A DNA stretch of 64,000 nt from an uncultured Candidatus Saccharibacteria bacterium (GTDB taxonomy: Bacteria > Patescibacteriota > Saccharimonadia > Saccharimonadales > CAYUUR01). Every line of letters starts with the position of its first letter. The stretch's first letter is position 1. Below the pieces are notes generated by a model. It saw nothing but the letters and a program-made list of their open reading frames with translations, ran no database searches and had not been told where the DNA came from. Position numbers and translations under genes: made by a program. Where the stretch lies: NCBI GenBank assembly GCA_964448075.1, contig CAYUUR010000003.1, positions 69,610 to 133,609 of the forward strand. Reading direction: 5' to 3'. Shown here piece by piece: positions 7,413 through 61,460 of the stretch.

Positions 7413-8624
7413 ATGGATAAACGACTAAAGAGCGGCAAGCGACGACCAAATACTAAACAGGTACTATTGGCTACTTTTGCTGGCGTATTGCTGTTTGGAC
7501 TGGGCTGGGGTTTTGGCACGGGCCGGGTTGGTATAGGTGCGAATGACACGCCGCAGCCTACAAATTCGGAATTGCCAGCAGACCTGACATATCAGGATAT
7601 TGAAACGGTCTACGATACACTCAAAGCCAACTATGATGGTGAACTGACCCTAGAAAAAATCAAGGACGGCCTCAAGAAGGGGCTTGCCGAGGCCTCCGGC
7701 GACCCATACACAGAGTATTTGAGTGCAGAAGAAAGCCAAGAGTTTGATGAGGAATTGGCGGGTTCATTTACGGGTATTGGTGCGGAACTCAGTAAAGAAA
7801 ATGACGTTGTGACGGTTGTAGCGCCAATTGCTGGGTACCCAGCAGAAAAGGCAGGATTGCGCGCCAAAGACGTAATTGTGGAGATCGATGGCAAGAGCAC
7901 TAATGACCTCAGTATCACCGAGGCGGTTAAGCGTATACGCGGGCCAAAAGGTACGGTCGTTAAAATAACAGTTGTACGTGACAAAAGCCAAGAATTGAGC
8001 TTTGACATACAGCGCGACAACATCAACATCCCAAGTGTAGAGTATGAGATTAAGCCAAATAACATTGGCTACATAAAGATATCGCGGTTTGGAGATGATA
8101 CTGCACGTTTGGCTCGCCAGGCTGCAGAAGAGTTCAAACAAAAGAATGTTCGTGGTGTGATTGTTGATGTTCGGAATAACCCTGGTGGCTTGCTCGATTC
8201 GTCTGTTGACGTGGCCGGCTTGTGGCTAAATCAGAAAACCGTTCTTACTGAGCGTCGAGGAGATGTAACAGTCAAGACGTACTCAACGGAGAACGACGCG
8301 CCGCTGAGCGGCATTCCAACTTTAGTGCTTATCAACGAGGGGAGCGCGAGTGCCAGTGAGATCTTGGCCGGTGCACTGAGCGATAATAAAGCCGCAACGC
8401 TTGTCGGTGCAAAATCATTTGGAAAAGGCAGTGTGCAGCGTCTCAATAGTCTACGAGATGGCGGAACGCTTAAGGTGACTATCGCGCGTTGGTATACACC
8501 AAGCGGCAAGAACATCGATAAAGAAGGTATTAAACCCGATAGCGAGGTCAAATTTAGCGCCGAAGATTTTGCTGCAAAAAAAGATCCACAGCTTGACGCC
8601 GCTCTTAAGTCGTTACAGCAATAA
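7413..8624 (+). CDS. ctpA: S41 family C-terminal processing protease with a PDZ domain
   Basis: 403 aa. It has an N-terminal TM anchor, a PDZ-like segment (VVAPIAGYPAEKAGLRAKDVIVEIDG), the catalytic Ser context GSASASEILAGAL and the Lys context FGKGSVQ. Confidence 0.88.
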   Translation: MDKRLKSGKRRPNTKQVLLATFAGVLLFGLGWGFGTGRVGIGANDTPQPTNSELPADLTYQDIETVYDTLKANYDGELTLEKIKDGLKKGLAEASGDPYTEYLSAEESQEFDEELAGSFTGIGAELSKENDVVTVVAPIAGYPAEKAGLRAKDVIVEIDGKSTNDLSITEAVKRIRGPKGTVVKITVVRDKSQELSFDIQRDNINIPSVEYEIKPNNIGYIKISRFGDDTARLARQAAEEFKQKNVRGVIVDVRNNPGGLLDSSVDVAGLWLNQKTVLTERRGDVTVKTYSTENDAPLSGIPTLVLINEGSASASEILAGALSDNKAATLVGAKSFGKGSVQRLNSLRDGGTLKVTIARWYTPSGKNIDKEGIKPDSEVKFSAEDFAAKKDPQLDAALKSLQQ

Positions 8625-8685
8625 CAACCTGTTCTTTTCCAAAGAACCAAACCCCTTGGGCCGTTCCGTCTCCTCGATCAATCTG

Positions 8686-8786
8686 TTGTACAAACCATGC
8701 TTGCTGCGGAACTCACCAATACATTGCCATCAGGCAATGTATTGGCTCAAACAGTCCTCGCACTCAAAGGCGCCTGGTTTGTACAA
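8686..8786. other. Two-tier perfect stem-loop in the non-coding gap
   Basis: The outer 12-bp helix pairs TTGTACAAACCA (8686-8697) with TGGTTTGTACAA (8775-8786). The inner 13-bp hairpin pairs CCAATACATTGCC (8716-8728) with GGCAATGTATTGG (8733-8745) around an ATCA loop. Confidence 0.5.
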
Positions 8787-8854
8787 CATCTTGTCGGGTA
8801 GCCGCAACATGCCCACCCCACGCCCGGACGCGAATAGCAACAACGATATTCTTC

Positions 8855-9228
8855 AGCTATAGGCGTACGGGCGGGGGTCACGCTCTGAAACACCGGTGGC
8901 TGGCAGGATTAAAACGCCGAGTCCAACCAAAAGGCGGTCTGAACTTCGTAACTAAAGAATATAGTGAAGACCACCCTGAAAGGGTGTTCTTTTGGTGCGG
9001 CTTTTTAGTTCTGTCCAGCCAACCGTGTGGCTTCAGCCGCGTGTCTGTTTTTGACATACCTTTTTGTGTCAGCAAAAAGGTATGTGGCTCGCTCGGCAAG
9101 GCCGAGCAGACATATAAGAGCTAGTGGACTTTCTTTGGAAATTGATAAGGGCGGCAGCATTAGCTGGCATGAAGGAGTTGCCGCGATGACAATGCAGTAA
9201 CAAAAACAATTTCCAGTGACATATAGCT
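8855..9228. ncRNA. Candidate structured RNA domain of unknown class (strand unresolved)
   Basis: Terminal helices pair 8855-8861 with 9222-9228 (AGCTATA/TATAGCT) and 8877-8881 with 9216-9220 (GTCAC/GTGAC). Internal perfect hairpins lie at 9054-9085 (13 bp), 9091-9107 (7 bp) and 8972-8986 (6 bp). There is no credible ORF. A near-palindromic extended -10 (TGATAGTATCA, 9231-9241) abuts the domain. Confidence 0.35.
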
Positions 9229-9275
9229 TGTGATAGTATCAGTATCAGTAATACGCGTGAGGGAGTATATACACA

Positions 9276-10874
9276 GTGGCAAAAAAGCCAACTAAATACG
9301 TATTTGTAACTGGTGGGGTGCTTTCCGGACTTGGGAAGGGCATTACTGCCGCCTCAATCGGCAACGGACTCCAAGCGCGCGGACTTTCAGTAAACATTCA
9401 GAAACTAGACCCATACCTCAATGTAGATGCCGGTACGCTCAACCCGGCAGAACATGGCGAATGTTTTGTTACTCAGGATGGCGCCGAAACTGACCTTGAT
9501 CTCGGGCATTATGAAAGATTTCTTGATGTAGAACTCACTCAGAGCAGCTCGATCATGAGTGGACGCATTCTGAGACAGTTGATCGATGATGAACGTGCTG
9601 GCGCTTTCTTAGGCAAGACCGTGCAGGTGGTGCCGCACTTTACGAACGCAATTCAAGATTGGATCAAAAAAGCTGCTGATGGCTTTGACGTGCATATTGT
9701 AGAAATTGGTGGAACAGTGGGCGATTATGAAAGCCCAGCATTCTTTGAGGCAATTCGTGAATACGGCAACAAGGTCGGCACGGAGAACTGTGTCTACGTC
9801 CAGGTTGTCTACTTACCGTATCTATCTACGAGTAAGGAGATTAAGACCAAACCCGCTCAGAACGCTTCTCGAGAGCTCCGAGCTATGGGTATCGTGCCAA
9901 ACGTCTTGGTAGCCAGAAGTGATGTGCCAGCAAATGGCAACGTACGCAGTAAGTTGAGTGCTTTCTGTGGAGTTCCAGAAGAAGGTATCGCAGTACTACC
10001 AAATGCTCGTACAGTTTACGAAGTGCCACTTACATTAGAAGAACAGGGAATCGGCGATTACATCCTCAAGCGACTACATCTAAAAGCCAAACGGGCCAAT
10101 CACAAAGAGTGGAAAAACCTCGTAGAATCAATCGTAACCAAGCCTAAAAAGACCGCCAAAGTAGCCATTGTAGCCAAGTATCTAGACAATGAAGACACCT
10201 ATTTCTCAGTGGTGGAGTCGCTACGCAGTGCATCATGGGCACACAAAGTTGGTCTCGAGTTTTCGTGGATAGATGCCGAGCAAATAACTACCGTTGCTCA
10301 GGCCAAGAAACTATTAGGTCGGTTTGACGGTGTTGTGGTCCCTGGCGGTTTTGGTACACGGGGTGTGGAGGGTAAAATTCTTGCCGCTCAGCACGCAATT
10401 CGTAGTAAGCAGCCATACTTGGGGTTGTGTCTAGGTATGCAAGTTGCCAGCATTGCGCTTGCAAGAGAATCAGGGCTGACACAAGCAAACACCACTGAAG
10501 TTGATGAGCATACCCCAGACCCAGTTATTGCGACTATGGCCGATCAAACCGACAAGCTCGGCACCGGTGGAACTATGCGCCTTGGCAACTATCCGTGCGT
10601 ACTCAAAAAAGGCACCAAAAGCTACAAACTTTATGGGCAGTCAAAGGTAGAAGAACGTCACCGTCATCGCTATGAATTCAATAATGCCTATCGTGAGCAG
10701 TTGGAGGCAAAAGGGCTTATTGTGGCCGGTGCAGCGCCTGATAACTCATTGGTGGAATTGATTGAGCTAAAAGATCACCCATTCATGATAGCCAGTCAGT
10801 ATCACCCAGAGTTCAAATCGCGTCCCAATAGGCCACATCCGTTGTTCGTCGGCTTCATTGAAGCCCTCCTGTAA
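9276..10874 (+). CDS. pyrG: CTP synthase
   Basis: 532 aa with a GTG start preceded by GAGGGAG. The N-terminus KYVFVTGGVLSGLGKGI, the IGGTVGDYES motif and the glutaminase-domain GLCLGMQ are all present. Confidence 0.95.
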   Translation: MAKKPTKYVFVTGGVLSGLGKGITAASIGNGLQARGLSVNIQKLDPYLNVDAGTLNPAEHGECFVTQDGAETDLDLGHYERFLDVELTQSSSIMSGRILRQLIDDERAGAFLGKTVQVVPHFTNAIQDWIKKAADGFDVHIVEIGGTVGDYESPAFFEAIREYGNKVGTENCVYVQVVYLPYLSTSKEIKTKPAQNASRELRAMGIVPNVLVARSDVPANGNVRSKLSAFCGVPEEGIAVLPNARTVYEVPLTLEEQGIGDYILKRLHLKAKRANHKEWKNLVESIVTKPKKTAKVAIVAKYLDNEDTYFSVVESLRSASWAHKVGLEFSWIDAEQITTVAQAKKLLGRFDGVVVPGGFGTRGVEGKILAAQHAIRSKQPYLGLCLGMQVASIALARESGLTQANTTEVDEHTPDPVIATMADQTDKLGTGGTMRLGNYPCVLKKGTKSYKLYGQSKVEERHRHRYEFNNAYREQLEAKGLIVAGAAPDNSLVELIELKDHPFMIASQYHPEFKSRPNRPHPLFVGFIEALL

Positions 10875-24189: not shown

Positions 24190-24210
24190 CAGGGTTTTCA
24201 TAACAAAAAA

Positions 24211-24240
24211 GACGCTCGTTTTCTGGAGCGTCTTTTTTGT
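24211..24240. terminator. Bidirectional rho-independent terminator
   Basis: The sequence is AAAAAA-GACGCTC-gttttctg-GAGCGTC-TTTTTTG. It lies between the convergent genes 23812-24189 (+) and 24255-24881 (-). Confidence 0.8.
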
Positions 24241-24254
24241 TTGTATGTTAGGGC

Positions 24255-39800: not shown

Positions 39801-40116
39801 TCAGACCGCACATTAACAAATAGCTAGACAGTACGAAGTTAGCTAATCGGCAGTCAACAAGTGATCGAGCTTGCACTATAAAACAAGTTTGCACCTTACA
39901 TAAAACACCTCCCAAAACTCCACCTCACACAATTAAGTCTCTCAAAACTTACGCGTTAAGATAGTTAGAAGTTCCGAGTGATGTAAATCATTCCAAAAGA
40001 ACGTCTTACATACTGTTCTAACGCACACAAAAACAAAAACATCGATAGAGCAGGGATGCTCTTCAAAAAACAAAAAGTTGGCTGCTGGTTAGGTGAGTTC
40101 GTAATAAAACAAAAAC

Positions 40117-47695: not shown

Positions 47696-47718
47696 TACCC
47701 CCTGTCACTTCTCTTTCC

Positions 47719-47735
47719 ATGTTCGCAAAATGTTC
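47719..47735 (+). repeat. Direct repeat, left copy (ATGTTCGCAAAATGTTC)
   Basis: It matches 48297-48313 at 16 of 17 positions. It is internally a tandem of ATGTTCGnA with 11-nt phasing. Confidence 0.6.
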
Positions 47736-48296
47736 GCATATAGTGAAACAGTCAATGTATTGAAAAACTATACTAAAGATTCAAAATAGAAAAAAGTCAA
47801 ATAGGGTAGTAATTGATGGAAAGGCGGGGTAGAAGAAAAAAACTATACAAGACAGGAAAAGTAGCAAAATGCAAGTATGCACATGTGGATAAGTCATGAG
47901 TTTTTTGCCACACGTTGTAAATAGCGTCACAAAATACAACGAGACGCTAGGCAGTATTTCAGAGGCTATTTAGTACTGTGAACATGGTTAATGCTTAGGC
48001 AGAGAGCTGCTTAGTAAGCCGAGACAGCAAGCGTGCTAATTATTAGATAAACTCCCCTGTAGAAGAGGTATATGTAATCAACTCCTAACCATAGATTAGA
48101 GTCGCAAAATATACATTGTACGACGTGGAATGTATTGTTCTCTATGTCTTCTCGTATTGCTCTTGTTTTGTTTGTTTTGAGTTACGTTTCATTATTTGTC
48201 ATGATTTTTTAAACCCACCCTGCTTTGCGTGCGGCCTACTACGTGGCGCGACTATTACGTGCTTCTTTCTATGGTATGAAAATATCCGCCTGCCTA

Positions 48297-48313
48297 ATGT
48301 TCGTAAAATGTTC
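48297..48313 (+). repeat. Direct repeat, right copy (ATGTTCGTAAAATGTTC)
   Basis: It matches 47719-47735 at 16 of 17 positions. Confidence 0.6.
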
Positions 48314-48338
48314 TTGTTATGTAAATTCGCACAAACTT

Positions 48339-54743: not shown

Positions 54744-54806
54744 GGTTGCACCCCTGTAAAACGCTTATGTTTCTTATAATATCCTTGCCAGACTTACAAA
54801 AAAGTA

Positions 54807-54834
54807 TTGACAATTGTCATAAAGTTGCTAAAAT
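54807..54834 (+). promoter_or_regulatory. Strong sigma-70-type promoter pointing away from dprA into an ORF-free region
   Basis: TTGACA (54807-54812), a 16-nt spacer ending in TGC, then TAAAAT (54829-54834). Confidence 0.6.
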
Positions 54835-54840
54835 TGCAAT

Positions 54841-55196
54841 CCGTAAGCGTGATATTCACGTTTTACGTACCTTATACCCCCAATTCTAACAAATGTTAGA
54901 AATAGTTTTGTTAGATTGTTTTAGAGCGTGCTGTCAAAGTTGTTACCCTCCACTTCGTCTAGCCTCACTGACTTCGGTTAGTGAAGCGCTCTAAAACAGA
55001 CTAACCCCTTTAACTCTGTTCCCGTTTCAAAGCGAGTATTCAAGTATTCCATCTTATGATGGAGGCACAGGTCCTTATATTAATAGACGCTGATGCTTCG
55101 CTGGGTGGGTTGAAGGGTGTATCTGCGGGACGACTCGTTCGTCCCTTGAATAGGCTTCCGGCGGTGCCCACCCCCTCCGGAAGCCTATTTTAGTTT
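54841..55196 (+). ncRNA. Candidate structured non-coding RNA of unknown class
   Basis: It lies downstream of the promoter above. Helices:
- an 11-bp helix pairing 54918-54928 with 54987-54997
- a UUCG-capped hairpin at 54966-54983
- hairpins at 54885-54902, 55051-55064 and 55127-55145
- a 10-bp terminator-like stem at 55152-55186 followed by ATTTTAGTTT
GGGTGGG (55103-55109) is complementary to the terminator loop CCCACCC (55167-55173). Confidence 0.4.
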
Positions 55197-55330
55197 GCGG
55201 TGCCTCACTCGCTTTCAGCGAGCCCGAAACTTACTTGATCGAAAAACAAGTTTTCGTCAGAAGCTTTCCTTGCAAACTGCCACAGGCAGTTCTCACCCTC
55301 CGGAGGCTCTTTTTTATGTTCCTAAGCTAG

Positions 55331-61385: not shown

Positions 61386-61460
61386 GGCCTCTTCGTCTAA
61401 CGGTTAGGACACCAGGTTCTCATCCTGGCAATAGGGGTTCGATTCCCCTAGAGGTCACCA
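61386..61460 (+). tRNA. tRNA-Glu (anticodon CTC), with CCA encoded
   Basis: It folds as a cloverleaf. The acceptor stem pairs GGCCTCT with AGAGGTC and the D arm is GTCT-AACGGTT-AGGA. The anticodon arm is CCAGG-TTCTCAT-CCTGG and the T arm is AGGGG-TTCGATT-CCCCT, followed by A-CCA. Confidence 0.9.

Follow-up and report, generated by a model that had tools for sequence, protein, structure and literature searches.

The S41–pyrG spacer

The window analyzed here is a stretch of 64,000 nt from an uncultured Candidatus Saccharibacteria bacterium (GenBank assembly GCA_964448075.1, contig CAYUUR010000003.1, positions 69,610–133,609 of the forward strand). Our subject is the noncoding gap at 8625–9275, which is bounded on the left by a gene for an S41 protease with a PDZ domain and on the right by pyrG, both on the plus strand. 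The S41 gene is the last of an ftsE-ftsX-CHAP hydrolase-S41 cluster whose gene order is common to relatives, and the nearest pyrG matches in a species-level genome collection are Saccharibacteria metagenome-assembled genomes. In nine other Saccharibacteria loci, whose pyrG proteins are 62 to 85% identical to that of the window, the spacer from the S41-like gene to pyrG measures 67 to 125 nt. The element that we describe is an insertion of ≈530 nt between the S41 stop codon and the pyrG promoter, present only in genomes with ≈96% identical pyrG protein and restricted to one species-level clade. It is strongly folded, its helices carry compensatory changes between strains, its central part is conserved far beyond the synonymous sites of the flanking genes, and it matches no described RNA family.

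Only one other complete copy was found, a gap of 694 nt in L095. Partial copies lie on contigs that end within the gap (L001, L082, L094/L097, L096, and L101), together with Logan contigs identical to the window. The parts of the element and the flanking features are collected in Table 1.

Table 1. Features at the S41–pyrG locus, with window coordinates and sequence identity among element-carrying strains
Feature	Position	Strand	Basis	Identity
S41 (C-terminal processing) protease gene with PDZ	7413–8624	+	Pfam Peptidase_S41 9e-53 plus PDZ
Domains 0–2	8625–8876			60–94% between strains
Small A/U-rich hairpin GTTCTTT-TCC-AAAGAAC, adjoining the stop codon, without U tract	8631–8647	+	inverted repeat; in window, L094, L095, L093, L098
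Domain 1, long irregular hairpin of ≈157 nt	8658–8814	+	architecture same in four strains
Domain 2, G+C-rich hairpin, stem 8816–8831/8863–8877, A/U-rich loop of ≈30 nt	8816–8877	+	inverted repeat, folds
Central module, 176 nt (8877–9052), with U tract end	8877–9053	+	conservation, fold	92–94% between strains over 8877–9052 (window, L095, L001), versus 51–58% at four-fold sites
HA/HB region	9053–9110			59–62% between alleles
Hairpin HA, perfect 13 bp, ACATACCTTTTTG-TGTCAG-CAAAAAGGTATGT	9054–9085	+	inverted repeat, covariation in L095
Hairpin HB, 7 bp, GCTCGGC-AAG-GCCGAGC	9091–9107	+	covariation in L095
Variable right region	9108–9190	+	no conserved structure, near-neutral divergence	56–69% between strains over 9111–9190, roughly neutral
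pyrG promoter and short leader	9191–9275	+		94–99% between strains
pyrG (CTP synthase), GTG start at 9276	9276–10874	+	Pfam CTP_synth_N 3.5e-108 plus GATase

The whole gap folds at −260 kcal/mol on the plus strand, with a z score of −12.2 that none of 20 shuffles equals, and with a z score of −9.0 on the minus strand; a separate control fold returned −13.8 and −7.6, respectively. Among ten long gaps of the window that we compared, this one scores strongest by far, and the gap at 54744–55330 alone is comparably strong on both strands. There are eight distinct perfect hairpins of at least 9 bp in the 64 kb, and two of the three longest fall inside 8625–9275 (the scan, which counts nested versions separately, gave 18 entries versus 1.9 per shuffle). 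An earlier note on this DNA had listed several such hairpins, and they are present as described: perfect stems of 13 bp at 8716–8745 and 9054–9085, of 7 bp at 9091–9107, and of 6 bp at 8972–8986. The perfect outer helix that it placed around the first of these is likewise there, at about 8684–8697/8775–8788.

Domain 1 is built on a lower stem (8658–8681/8791–8814) with 1-nt mismatches at fixed positions, above which come an upper stem (8684–8700/8772–8788), a short internal helix, and the perfect apical hairpin at 8716–8745. Its unpaired stretches UUGCUGCGGAACUCA and CUCAAACAGUCCUCGCAC are conserved and are identical in the window and L095. The loop of domain 2 is replaced in L082 by an unrelated one of 15 nt. 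For the central module, folding predicts a rod of ≈165 nt (8879–9043) with a closing stem of some 30 pairs (8890–8919 with 8999–9028) that is extended by CACGC/GCGUG and CUGAA/UUCAG, and a three-way junction formed by CCAAAAG/CUUUUGG, GGUCU/AGACC with a 25-nt loop, and CACCC/GGGUG. The module also aligns with its own reverse complement, as an imperfect palindrome of 140 nt, and it ends in the U tract TCTGTTTTTG at 9044–9053. Farther right, 9111–9190 is not significantly structured (fold z −0.5 to −2.1) and folds differently from strain to strain; the variable region at 9108–9190 probably has no sequence-specific role.

Two longer-range pairings did not hold up in the comparison with L095. The 374-nt domain drawn in the earlier note was to be closed by AGCUAUA/UAUAGCU, for which L095 has AGCCACA and UAUACCA, with no pairing between them. 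The second closing helix, GUCAC/GUGAC, is invariant and hence informative neither way, and its GUGAC lies inside the pyrG promoter. We also rejected a perfect 11-bp helix between 8636–8646 and 9131–9141, which is not kept in L095.

The gap holds no credible coding sequence, in agreement with the earlier note. Pfam returned no match for the open reading frames (ORFs) at 8569–8862, 8878–9099, and 8231–8650, and neither of the first two, which were those considered in the note, is full length in the other strains. Across the gap, no ORF of at least 25 aa keeps its length in other strains, and indels of 1 to 2 nt break the frames.

Compensatory change in the helices

Comparative analysis of covariation in the ctpA-pyrG spacers had been put forward in the earlier note as a check, and compensatory changes were found in both alignments that we examined. 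The first, A4, covers 8653–8877 in four strains, with a structure of 75 pairs specified by hand. In it, 22 of the 75 pairs have changed on both sides with pairing kept, and pairing is seen in 94.9% of the cells; on each of five measures, all 500 shuffles fall short of the observed value. When the partners were slid by one to three columns, one to five such pairs remained and 29 to 46% of cells were paired. Helices 1 to 3, in domain 1, account for 21 of the both-side changes, with 90.6 to 100% of cells paired. L082 was partly misaligned by MAFFT in the apical part, the effect of which is only to lower the counts. The helix of domain 2 (helix 5 of A4) is 96.6% paired and contributes one compensatory pair, along with a G·U pair in three of the four strains.

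The second alignment, A5, covers 8877–9113 and 84 pairs. Its seven compensatory pairs all fall in hairpins HA and HB, a count that no shuffle out of 500 reaches (slid controls for A4 and A5 together gave zero to five). Four pairs of HA have changed on both sides in L095, and HB carries three adjacent compensatory pairs in the same strain (GCCAAGC-TTC-GCTTGGC). The total is thus 29 compensatory pairs, 22 in 8653–8877 and seven in the hairpins at 9054–9107. When the window is compared with L095 alone, 20 such pairs are seen: 13 in domain 1, four in HA, and three in HB.

The central module behaves differently, in that 31 of the 34 pairs of its main stem are invariant. Because its helices never vary, covariation neither backs nor contradicts the predicted rod with its three-way junction; a hand count of variable columns places the substitutions mostly in predicted loops. 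The background against which this conservation stands is a divergent one, since four-fold degenerate sites differ among carriers by 42 to 49% in pyrG and by 41 to 61% in the S41 gene, and pyrG nucleotide identity is 83 to 86%. Stems that drift by compensation around frozen loops are the pattern that a functional folded single strand would leave. Of the three identities that the earlier note had offered for this region, an undescribed RNA is the one that gains support, from the strong covariation and from conservation far above the level of synonymous sites.

Structural variants and the case for DNA palindromes

The strains also differ in which modules they carry. L082 is without window positions 8888–9097, so that CGCTCTG is joined straight to CAAGGCCGAGC. 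In the window, the segment missing from L082 is flanked by a 7-bp direct repeat (CGCTCTG at 8881–8887 and CGCTCGG at 9090–9096), the right-hand copy of which is not adjoined by the inverted arms of the module (8890–8919/8999–9028), and the 5′ arm of HB in L082 comes from GCTCTGC. An extra hairpin module of ≈37 nt follows position 8649 in L082, L094, and L095 and is missing from the window. The 6-nt loop of HA reads TGTCAG in the window and its reverse complement, CTGACA, in L001 (345–376) and L097, on identical stems; this change is a DNA-level palindrome flip. Finally, L097 (1–1831) combines a pyrG that is 100% identical to that of L095 at the nucleotide level with a spacer of the L001 type. 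The alleles therefore recombine, and the breakpoint probably lies within the promoter region, between ATAGCTTG/ATACCATG and the −10 element.

All short-read assemblies are interrupted within the gap, in many cases at a perfect hairpin. At least 11 contigs from various samples and assemblers end in the spacer (L081, L082, L086, L087, L093, L094, L096–L099, L101, and L001), several of them at or within perfect hairpins, namely at window positions 8897 and 9086 and in the apical hairpin of domain 1. Coexisting structural variants or hairpin-related assembly failure may be responsible. An invertible promoter was rejected as the cause because no inverted repeats are present at 8897 and 9086.

These properties raise the possibility that the spacer consists of DNA-level palindromes or decaying mobile DNA. 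Miniature inverted-repeat transposable element (MITE)-like insertions would then have accumulated at a permissive site, their arms kept complementary by template switching or hairpin-directed repair instead of by a function in RNA, and the central module would have been inserted recently and spread by recombination. Modules that come and go as wholes (the ≈37 nt after 8649; 8888–9097 in L082, flanked by CGCTCTG/CGCTCGG), the reversed HA loop, the palindromic central module, the assembly breaks, and the recombination of alleles all fit such an origin, as does the fact that several stems are perfect Watson–Crick helices over 13 bp in every strain. Palindrome repair, however, does not predict that a G·U wobble and the positions of mismatches should be kept across divergent alleles, nor does this explanation sit well with unpaired loops that stay conserved as the stems drift, or with strain differences in the central module that amount to 6 to 8%, are star-like, and lie mostly in predicted loops. 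No clear terminal inverted repeats were found beside the 7-bp direct repeat. A second copy was sought by blastn and nhmmer in the 64-kb window and 789 kb of loci, and by blastn in phage and plasmid collections, and was not found. Exact-word scans of viral contigs gave zero and five matches, the five 16-mers being taken as chance (nhmmer was weak on one of them, L091, with an E-value of 4.5), and a 20-mer scan of JGI metagenomes gave a single 21-mer match (L100) that shares nothing beyond the word and was likewise taken as chance. We regard the DNA-level explanation as unlikely; it nevertheless stands first in confidence among the rivals, ahead of an RNA from the minus strand and then of a pyrG attenuator or riboswitch.

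Which strand is folded

On balance we favor the plus strand, with reservations, and conserved wobble pairs speak for it. In the well-aligned cells of the supported A4 helices there are nine non-Watson–Crick pairs at four positions, every one of which is G·U when read on the plus strand and none A·C. One U·G wobble (A4 columns 22/151) is kept in all four strains beside a pair that has changed from C-G to U-A. Further conserved plus-strand G·U pairs occur in the stems of the central module and at the base of HA. A hairpin at 9024–9043 requires three G·U pairs, one of which becomes G-C in L095, and is impossible on the minus strand.

The plus strand also has terminator-like sites between the S41 gene and pyrG at 8972–8996 and 9024–9053 only. 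By consensus match, both are predicted intrinsic terminators, the first formed by 8972–8986 plus TTCTTTTGGT and the second by 9024–9043 plus TCTGTTTTTG. Both sites are found in L001 and the first of them in L095.

Several observations weigh against a plus-strand assignment. In each of the four strains, domain 1 is 9 to 14 kcal/mol more stable when folded on the minus strand, and one internal A·C mismatch of this domain would be G·U there. Downstream of domain 1 on that strand comes GGUUUUG / GGUUUGGUUCUUUGG. The window has a terminator-like site there at 8662–8650, and L082 has one at the corresponding position. Leftward promoter-like sites are seen at 9241–9233 (TGATACTAT) and from 9291 to 9264 (TTGGCT-16-TATACT). 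Taken together, these features would describe a minus-strand RNA of ≈600 nt that starts at one of the two sites and ends at domain 1, on this strand a large hairpin built on G+C pairs, and the U-rich tract at about 8657–8640. It may add to this case that the G-to-A change that makes the −10 element palindromic, like the TATACT box, occurs only in element-carrying genomes. We think such an RNA rather unlikely, a little more so than the DNA-level explanation. The plus-strand G·U pairs would become A·C on the minus strand (nine cells versus none in A4, and further ones in A5), the central module folds 5 to 10 kcal/mol worse there, and the two promoter-like sites coincide in part with the promoter, ribosome-binding site, and start codon of pyrG, signals that have reasons of their own to be conserved. 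Folding energy itself was set aside as strand evidence, being conflicting: domain 1 favors the minus strand, whereas the central module, like the hairpin at 9024–9043, favors the plus strand.

The pyrG promoter lies downstream of the element

Next to pyrG we find an A-rich upstream region, a −35-like TTTCCA at 9210–9215, an 18-nt spacer, and an extended −10 element, TG-A-TAGTAT, at 9231–9239, followed by the Shine–Dalgarno sequence GAGGGAG at 9259–9265 and the GTG start codon. The near-palindromic TGATAGTATCA at 9231–9241, which the earlier note had read as an extended −10 that could act in either direction, is indeed present and is the extended −10 of pyrG. In the form TGTGrTAGTATC (window 9229–9240), it is kept in all nine short-spacer relatives, including L002, L083, L084, and L085, and the sequence becomes alignable again to L084, whose pyrG protein is 85% identical, from ATGCAGTAA at about 9190. 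Element-free relatives thus have the same −10, which makes the promoter of pyrG ancestral, and the insertion sits upstream of it.

The minus-strand promoter-like sequence from 9291 to 9264 is antisense to the start of pyrG, and its GTATATAC box is absent in short-spacer relatives. A 43-aa antisense ORF at 9160–9291 on the same strand is conserved in every element-carrying strain. We judged the ORF an artifact of its overlap with the conserved signals of pyrG (promoter, ribosome-binding site, and start codon), and the conservation of both antisense features may be incidental to these pyrG signals.

The position of the promoter bears directly on whether the element could serve as a pyrG leader, which the earlier note had named as its second option. 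Attenuators of pyrG are known in Firmicutes, the element lies directly upstream of the gene, and the closing stem of the central module and the hairpin at 9024–9043 are mutually exclusive folds, because the 5′ arm of the latter and the 3′ strand of the former share nucleotides. An upstream promoter could thus, in principle, read the element into pyrG, with a module that senses a ligand or nucleotide and in which the two folds compete. We consider this very improbable. The conserved promoter downstream of the element is the same as in element-free relatives, the start codon lies ≈220 nt past the putative terminator, with the neutrally drifting region in between, a closing stem of some 30 pairs is far too stable for a switch, L082 is without the module, and no riboswitch or leader family was matched in Rfam at E ≤ 10.

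One weak similarity to pyrG itself was seen. By nhmmer, module positions 74–157 (window 8950–9033) align, in reverse complement, to the segment of Chloroflexi pyrG genes that codes for ELKDHPF (L027 5450–5529 and about 15 other loci), with a best E-value of 0.006. We ascribed the match to chance and rejected both a fragment derived from pyrG and an antisense RNA against it: the pyrG of the window gives no nhmmer hit, the protein match is limited to KEHPF.VV, and in L001 the frame is lost to an insertion of 2 nt. Complementarity of 18/21 is expected about twice by chance, according to a hand estimate rather than a computation.

Comparison with RNase P RNA and other known families

The element matches no described RNA family and is new to Rfam. 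Nothing in the gap passes Rfam gathering thresholds. The earlier note had suggested scans with the RNaseP_bact_a/b, 6S, transfer-messenger RNA (tmRNA), and signal recognition particle (SRP) models; with permissive filters and E ≤ 10, cmscan finds no RNase P, 6S, tmRNA, SRP, riboswitch, or leader family either in the window (8500–9400) or in the variant of L095 (1100–1850). With ARAGORN also empty for the gap, we rejected these classes. An attC-like site was rejected as well, as the R-box consensus (RYYYAAC / GTTRRRY) was not found by eye.

The first option of the earlier note, an RNase P RNA of divergent or reduced form read from the minus strand, deserves separate treatment. RNase P RNA is the product of an essential single-copy gene, and its universally conserved CR-I (GGAAAGUCC) and CR-V (ACAGAA) form the P4 helix, with catalytic and specificity domains between them. 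The likeness consists of a pair of short minus-strand words in a single strain, GAAAGUCC and GACAGAAC, and of a comparable overall size. The first word becomes GAAACUCC in L001, UCAACUCC in L082, and AAAAGUUGC in L095, and the second becomes GACAGGAC and GACAGCAC in close strains and is missing with its whole segment from L082, all of this among strains with 96% identical proteins. The two words are only ≈118 nt apart, and neither the earlier note nor the present analysis could build a P4 helix. The P3-like helix that accompanied them in the note, measured here as 9 bp (9136–9144/9207–9215), is perfect in the window only, and its 5′ strand lies within the variable 9111–9190. The motifs are, moreover, read on the strand that the pairing evidence disfavors, and relatives at 62 to 85% pyrG identity have nothing at this locus, in conflict with the universal presence of RNase P RNA. 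In the candidate phyla radiation (CPR), to which Saccharibacteria belong, RNase P RNAs can diverge below Rfam thresholds, so that relaxed thresholds are acceptable (PMC8172020); neither variant matches an RNase P model even at E ≤ 10. Apart from that paper, a literature search on structured RNAs in Saccharibacteria or CPR bacteria returned nothing relevant. We conclude that the resemblance is a chance match of two 8-mers and that an RNase P RNA at this place has almost no likelihood.

Other features of the window

A perfect 16-bp hairpin between convergent genes at 24202–24241, with an A tract and a T tract on its flanks (AACAAAAAAGACGCTC...GAGCGTCTTTTTTGTT), is a textbook bidirectional intrinsic terminator, and from this example canonical terminators are in use in the genome of the window. 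ARAGORN finds a single tRNA-Glu at 61386–61460 and no tmRNA. The other highly structured noncoding gap, 54744–55330, is 587 nt long, has a minus-strand gene on either side, and folds with a z of −5.7 on the plus strand and −7.6 on the minus strand; its perfect hairpins include AATAGGCTTCCGG...CCGGAAGCCTATT near 55148–55190 and GTTTTAGAGCG...CGCTCTAAAAC at 54918–54997. Rfam gave nothing for it at E ≤ 10, and its sequence does not resemble 8625–9275. Two further gaps are A+T rich, with 38% G+C each. The one at 39801–40116 (316 nt) folds with a z of −5.7 on the plus strand only. The one at 47696–48338 (643 nt) is unstructured (z about +1), and gene orientation is mostly plus up to 47695 and mostly minus from 48339; this gap may be a replication terminus or origin region.

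A proposed 3′ untranslated region and its relation to known RNAs

The reading that we favor, tentatively and with slightly less than even confidence, is that 8625 to about 9110, roughly 490 nt in all, specifies a lineage-specific structured noncoding RNA on the plus strand, either as a long 3′ untranslated region (UTR) or as a 3′-derived small RNA (sRNA) of the S41 transcript. We prefer it because no earlier terminator is present and because the G·U pairs are strand specific; the S41 stop codon itself is without a canonical terminator. Transcripts from the ftsEX-CHAP-S41 cluster, or ones that start near the end of the S41 gene, would pass the stop codon and run through domain 1, with its freely varying apical hairpin, then domain 2 and the central rod, to end at the stem and U tract at about 9053. 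HA and HB would lie beyond this end, upstream of the separate, conserved promoter from which pyrG would be expressed. The structured 3′ UTR may terminate and protect the upstream transcript, with its conserved loops contacting a protein or RNA partner, and its perfect duplexes could plausibly be cut by RNase III or shield the 3′ end. The central module is the best candidate for a part that acts as a discrete RNA, and it could be released as an sRNA.

Beyond the minus-strand features already described, several points count against this proposal. The comparisons cover three to five strains of a single clade, and these recombine, so that the compensatory counts are not independent events. The predicted fold of the central module rests on thermodynamics and on where substitutions fall. 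HA and HB covary although they lie downstream of the proposed terminator, and a natural strain, L082, does without the central module. We also infer transcription, strand, 3′ end, and function alike from the sequence.

A bolder version, possible but distinctly less likely than the 3′ UTR proposal, holds that this is an undescribed structured noncoding RNA of ≈430 to 490 nt that one lineage acquired and that strong purifying selection has maintained in a streamlined, ≈1-Mb genome, with a dispensable and possibly horizontally exchanged 176-nt module that would act in trans through its loops. Saccharibacteria genomes are small and densely coding, and ≈530 nt of extra noncoding sequence are for that reason not expected to survive without function. 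Frozen loops and some 29 compensatory pairs, at a divergence where synonymous sites are near saturation, strengthen this expectation. If transcribed, the element would be among very few large structured CPR RNAs, and the wild strains with and without the central module would constitute a natural experiment. The analysis also illustrates that population variants in public assemblies can supply a covariation test when distant homologs are missing.

Three groups of known elements invite comparison. REP/BIME, BOX, ERIC, and MITE sequences share with this one a mosaic of hairpin modules after a gene, modules that are present or absent, and a loop that is inverted between strains, and termination or protection of mRNA, as known for such sequences, is plausible here. 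They differ in occurring in many copies per genome, whereas the element has no second copy in the sequences searched, and its loops and one wobble pair are constrained. Large noncoding RNAs such as OLE, GOLLD, ROOL, and raiA, all represented in Rfam, are likewise several hundred nucleotides long, with many compensated helices, conserved unpaired stretches, and no capacity to code; the present element matches none of them in sequence or structure, is limited to a single narrow clade and locus, and has one module that is naturally dispensable. The remaining parallel is with long, structured 3′ UTRs of bacteria and the sRNAs derived from them, such as CpxQ, SroC, and DapZ, which end at the intrinsic terminator of the parent gene. 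The element is far longer and more structured than these, is confined to one species-level clade and known from sequence alone, and has two more covarying hairpins past its putative terminator. As in their case, however, it adjoins the stop codon on the coding strand, the first stem and U tract come 350 to 430 nt downstream, a discrete conserved module appears to carry the terminator, and the next gene has a separate promoter.

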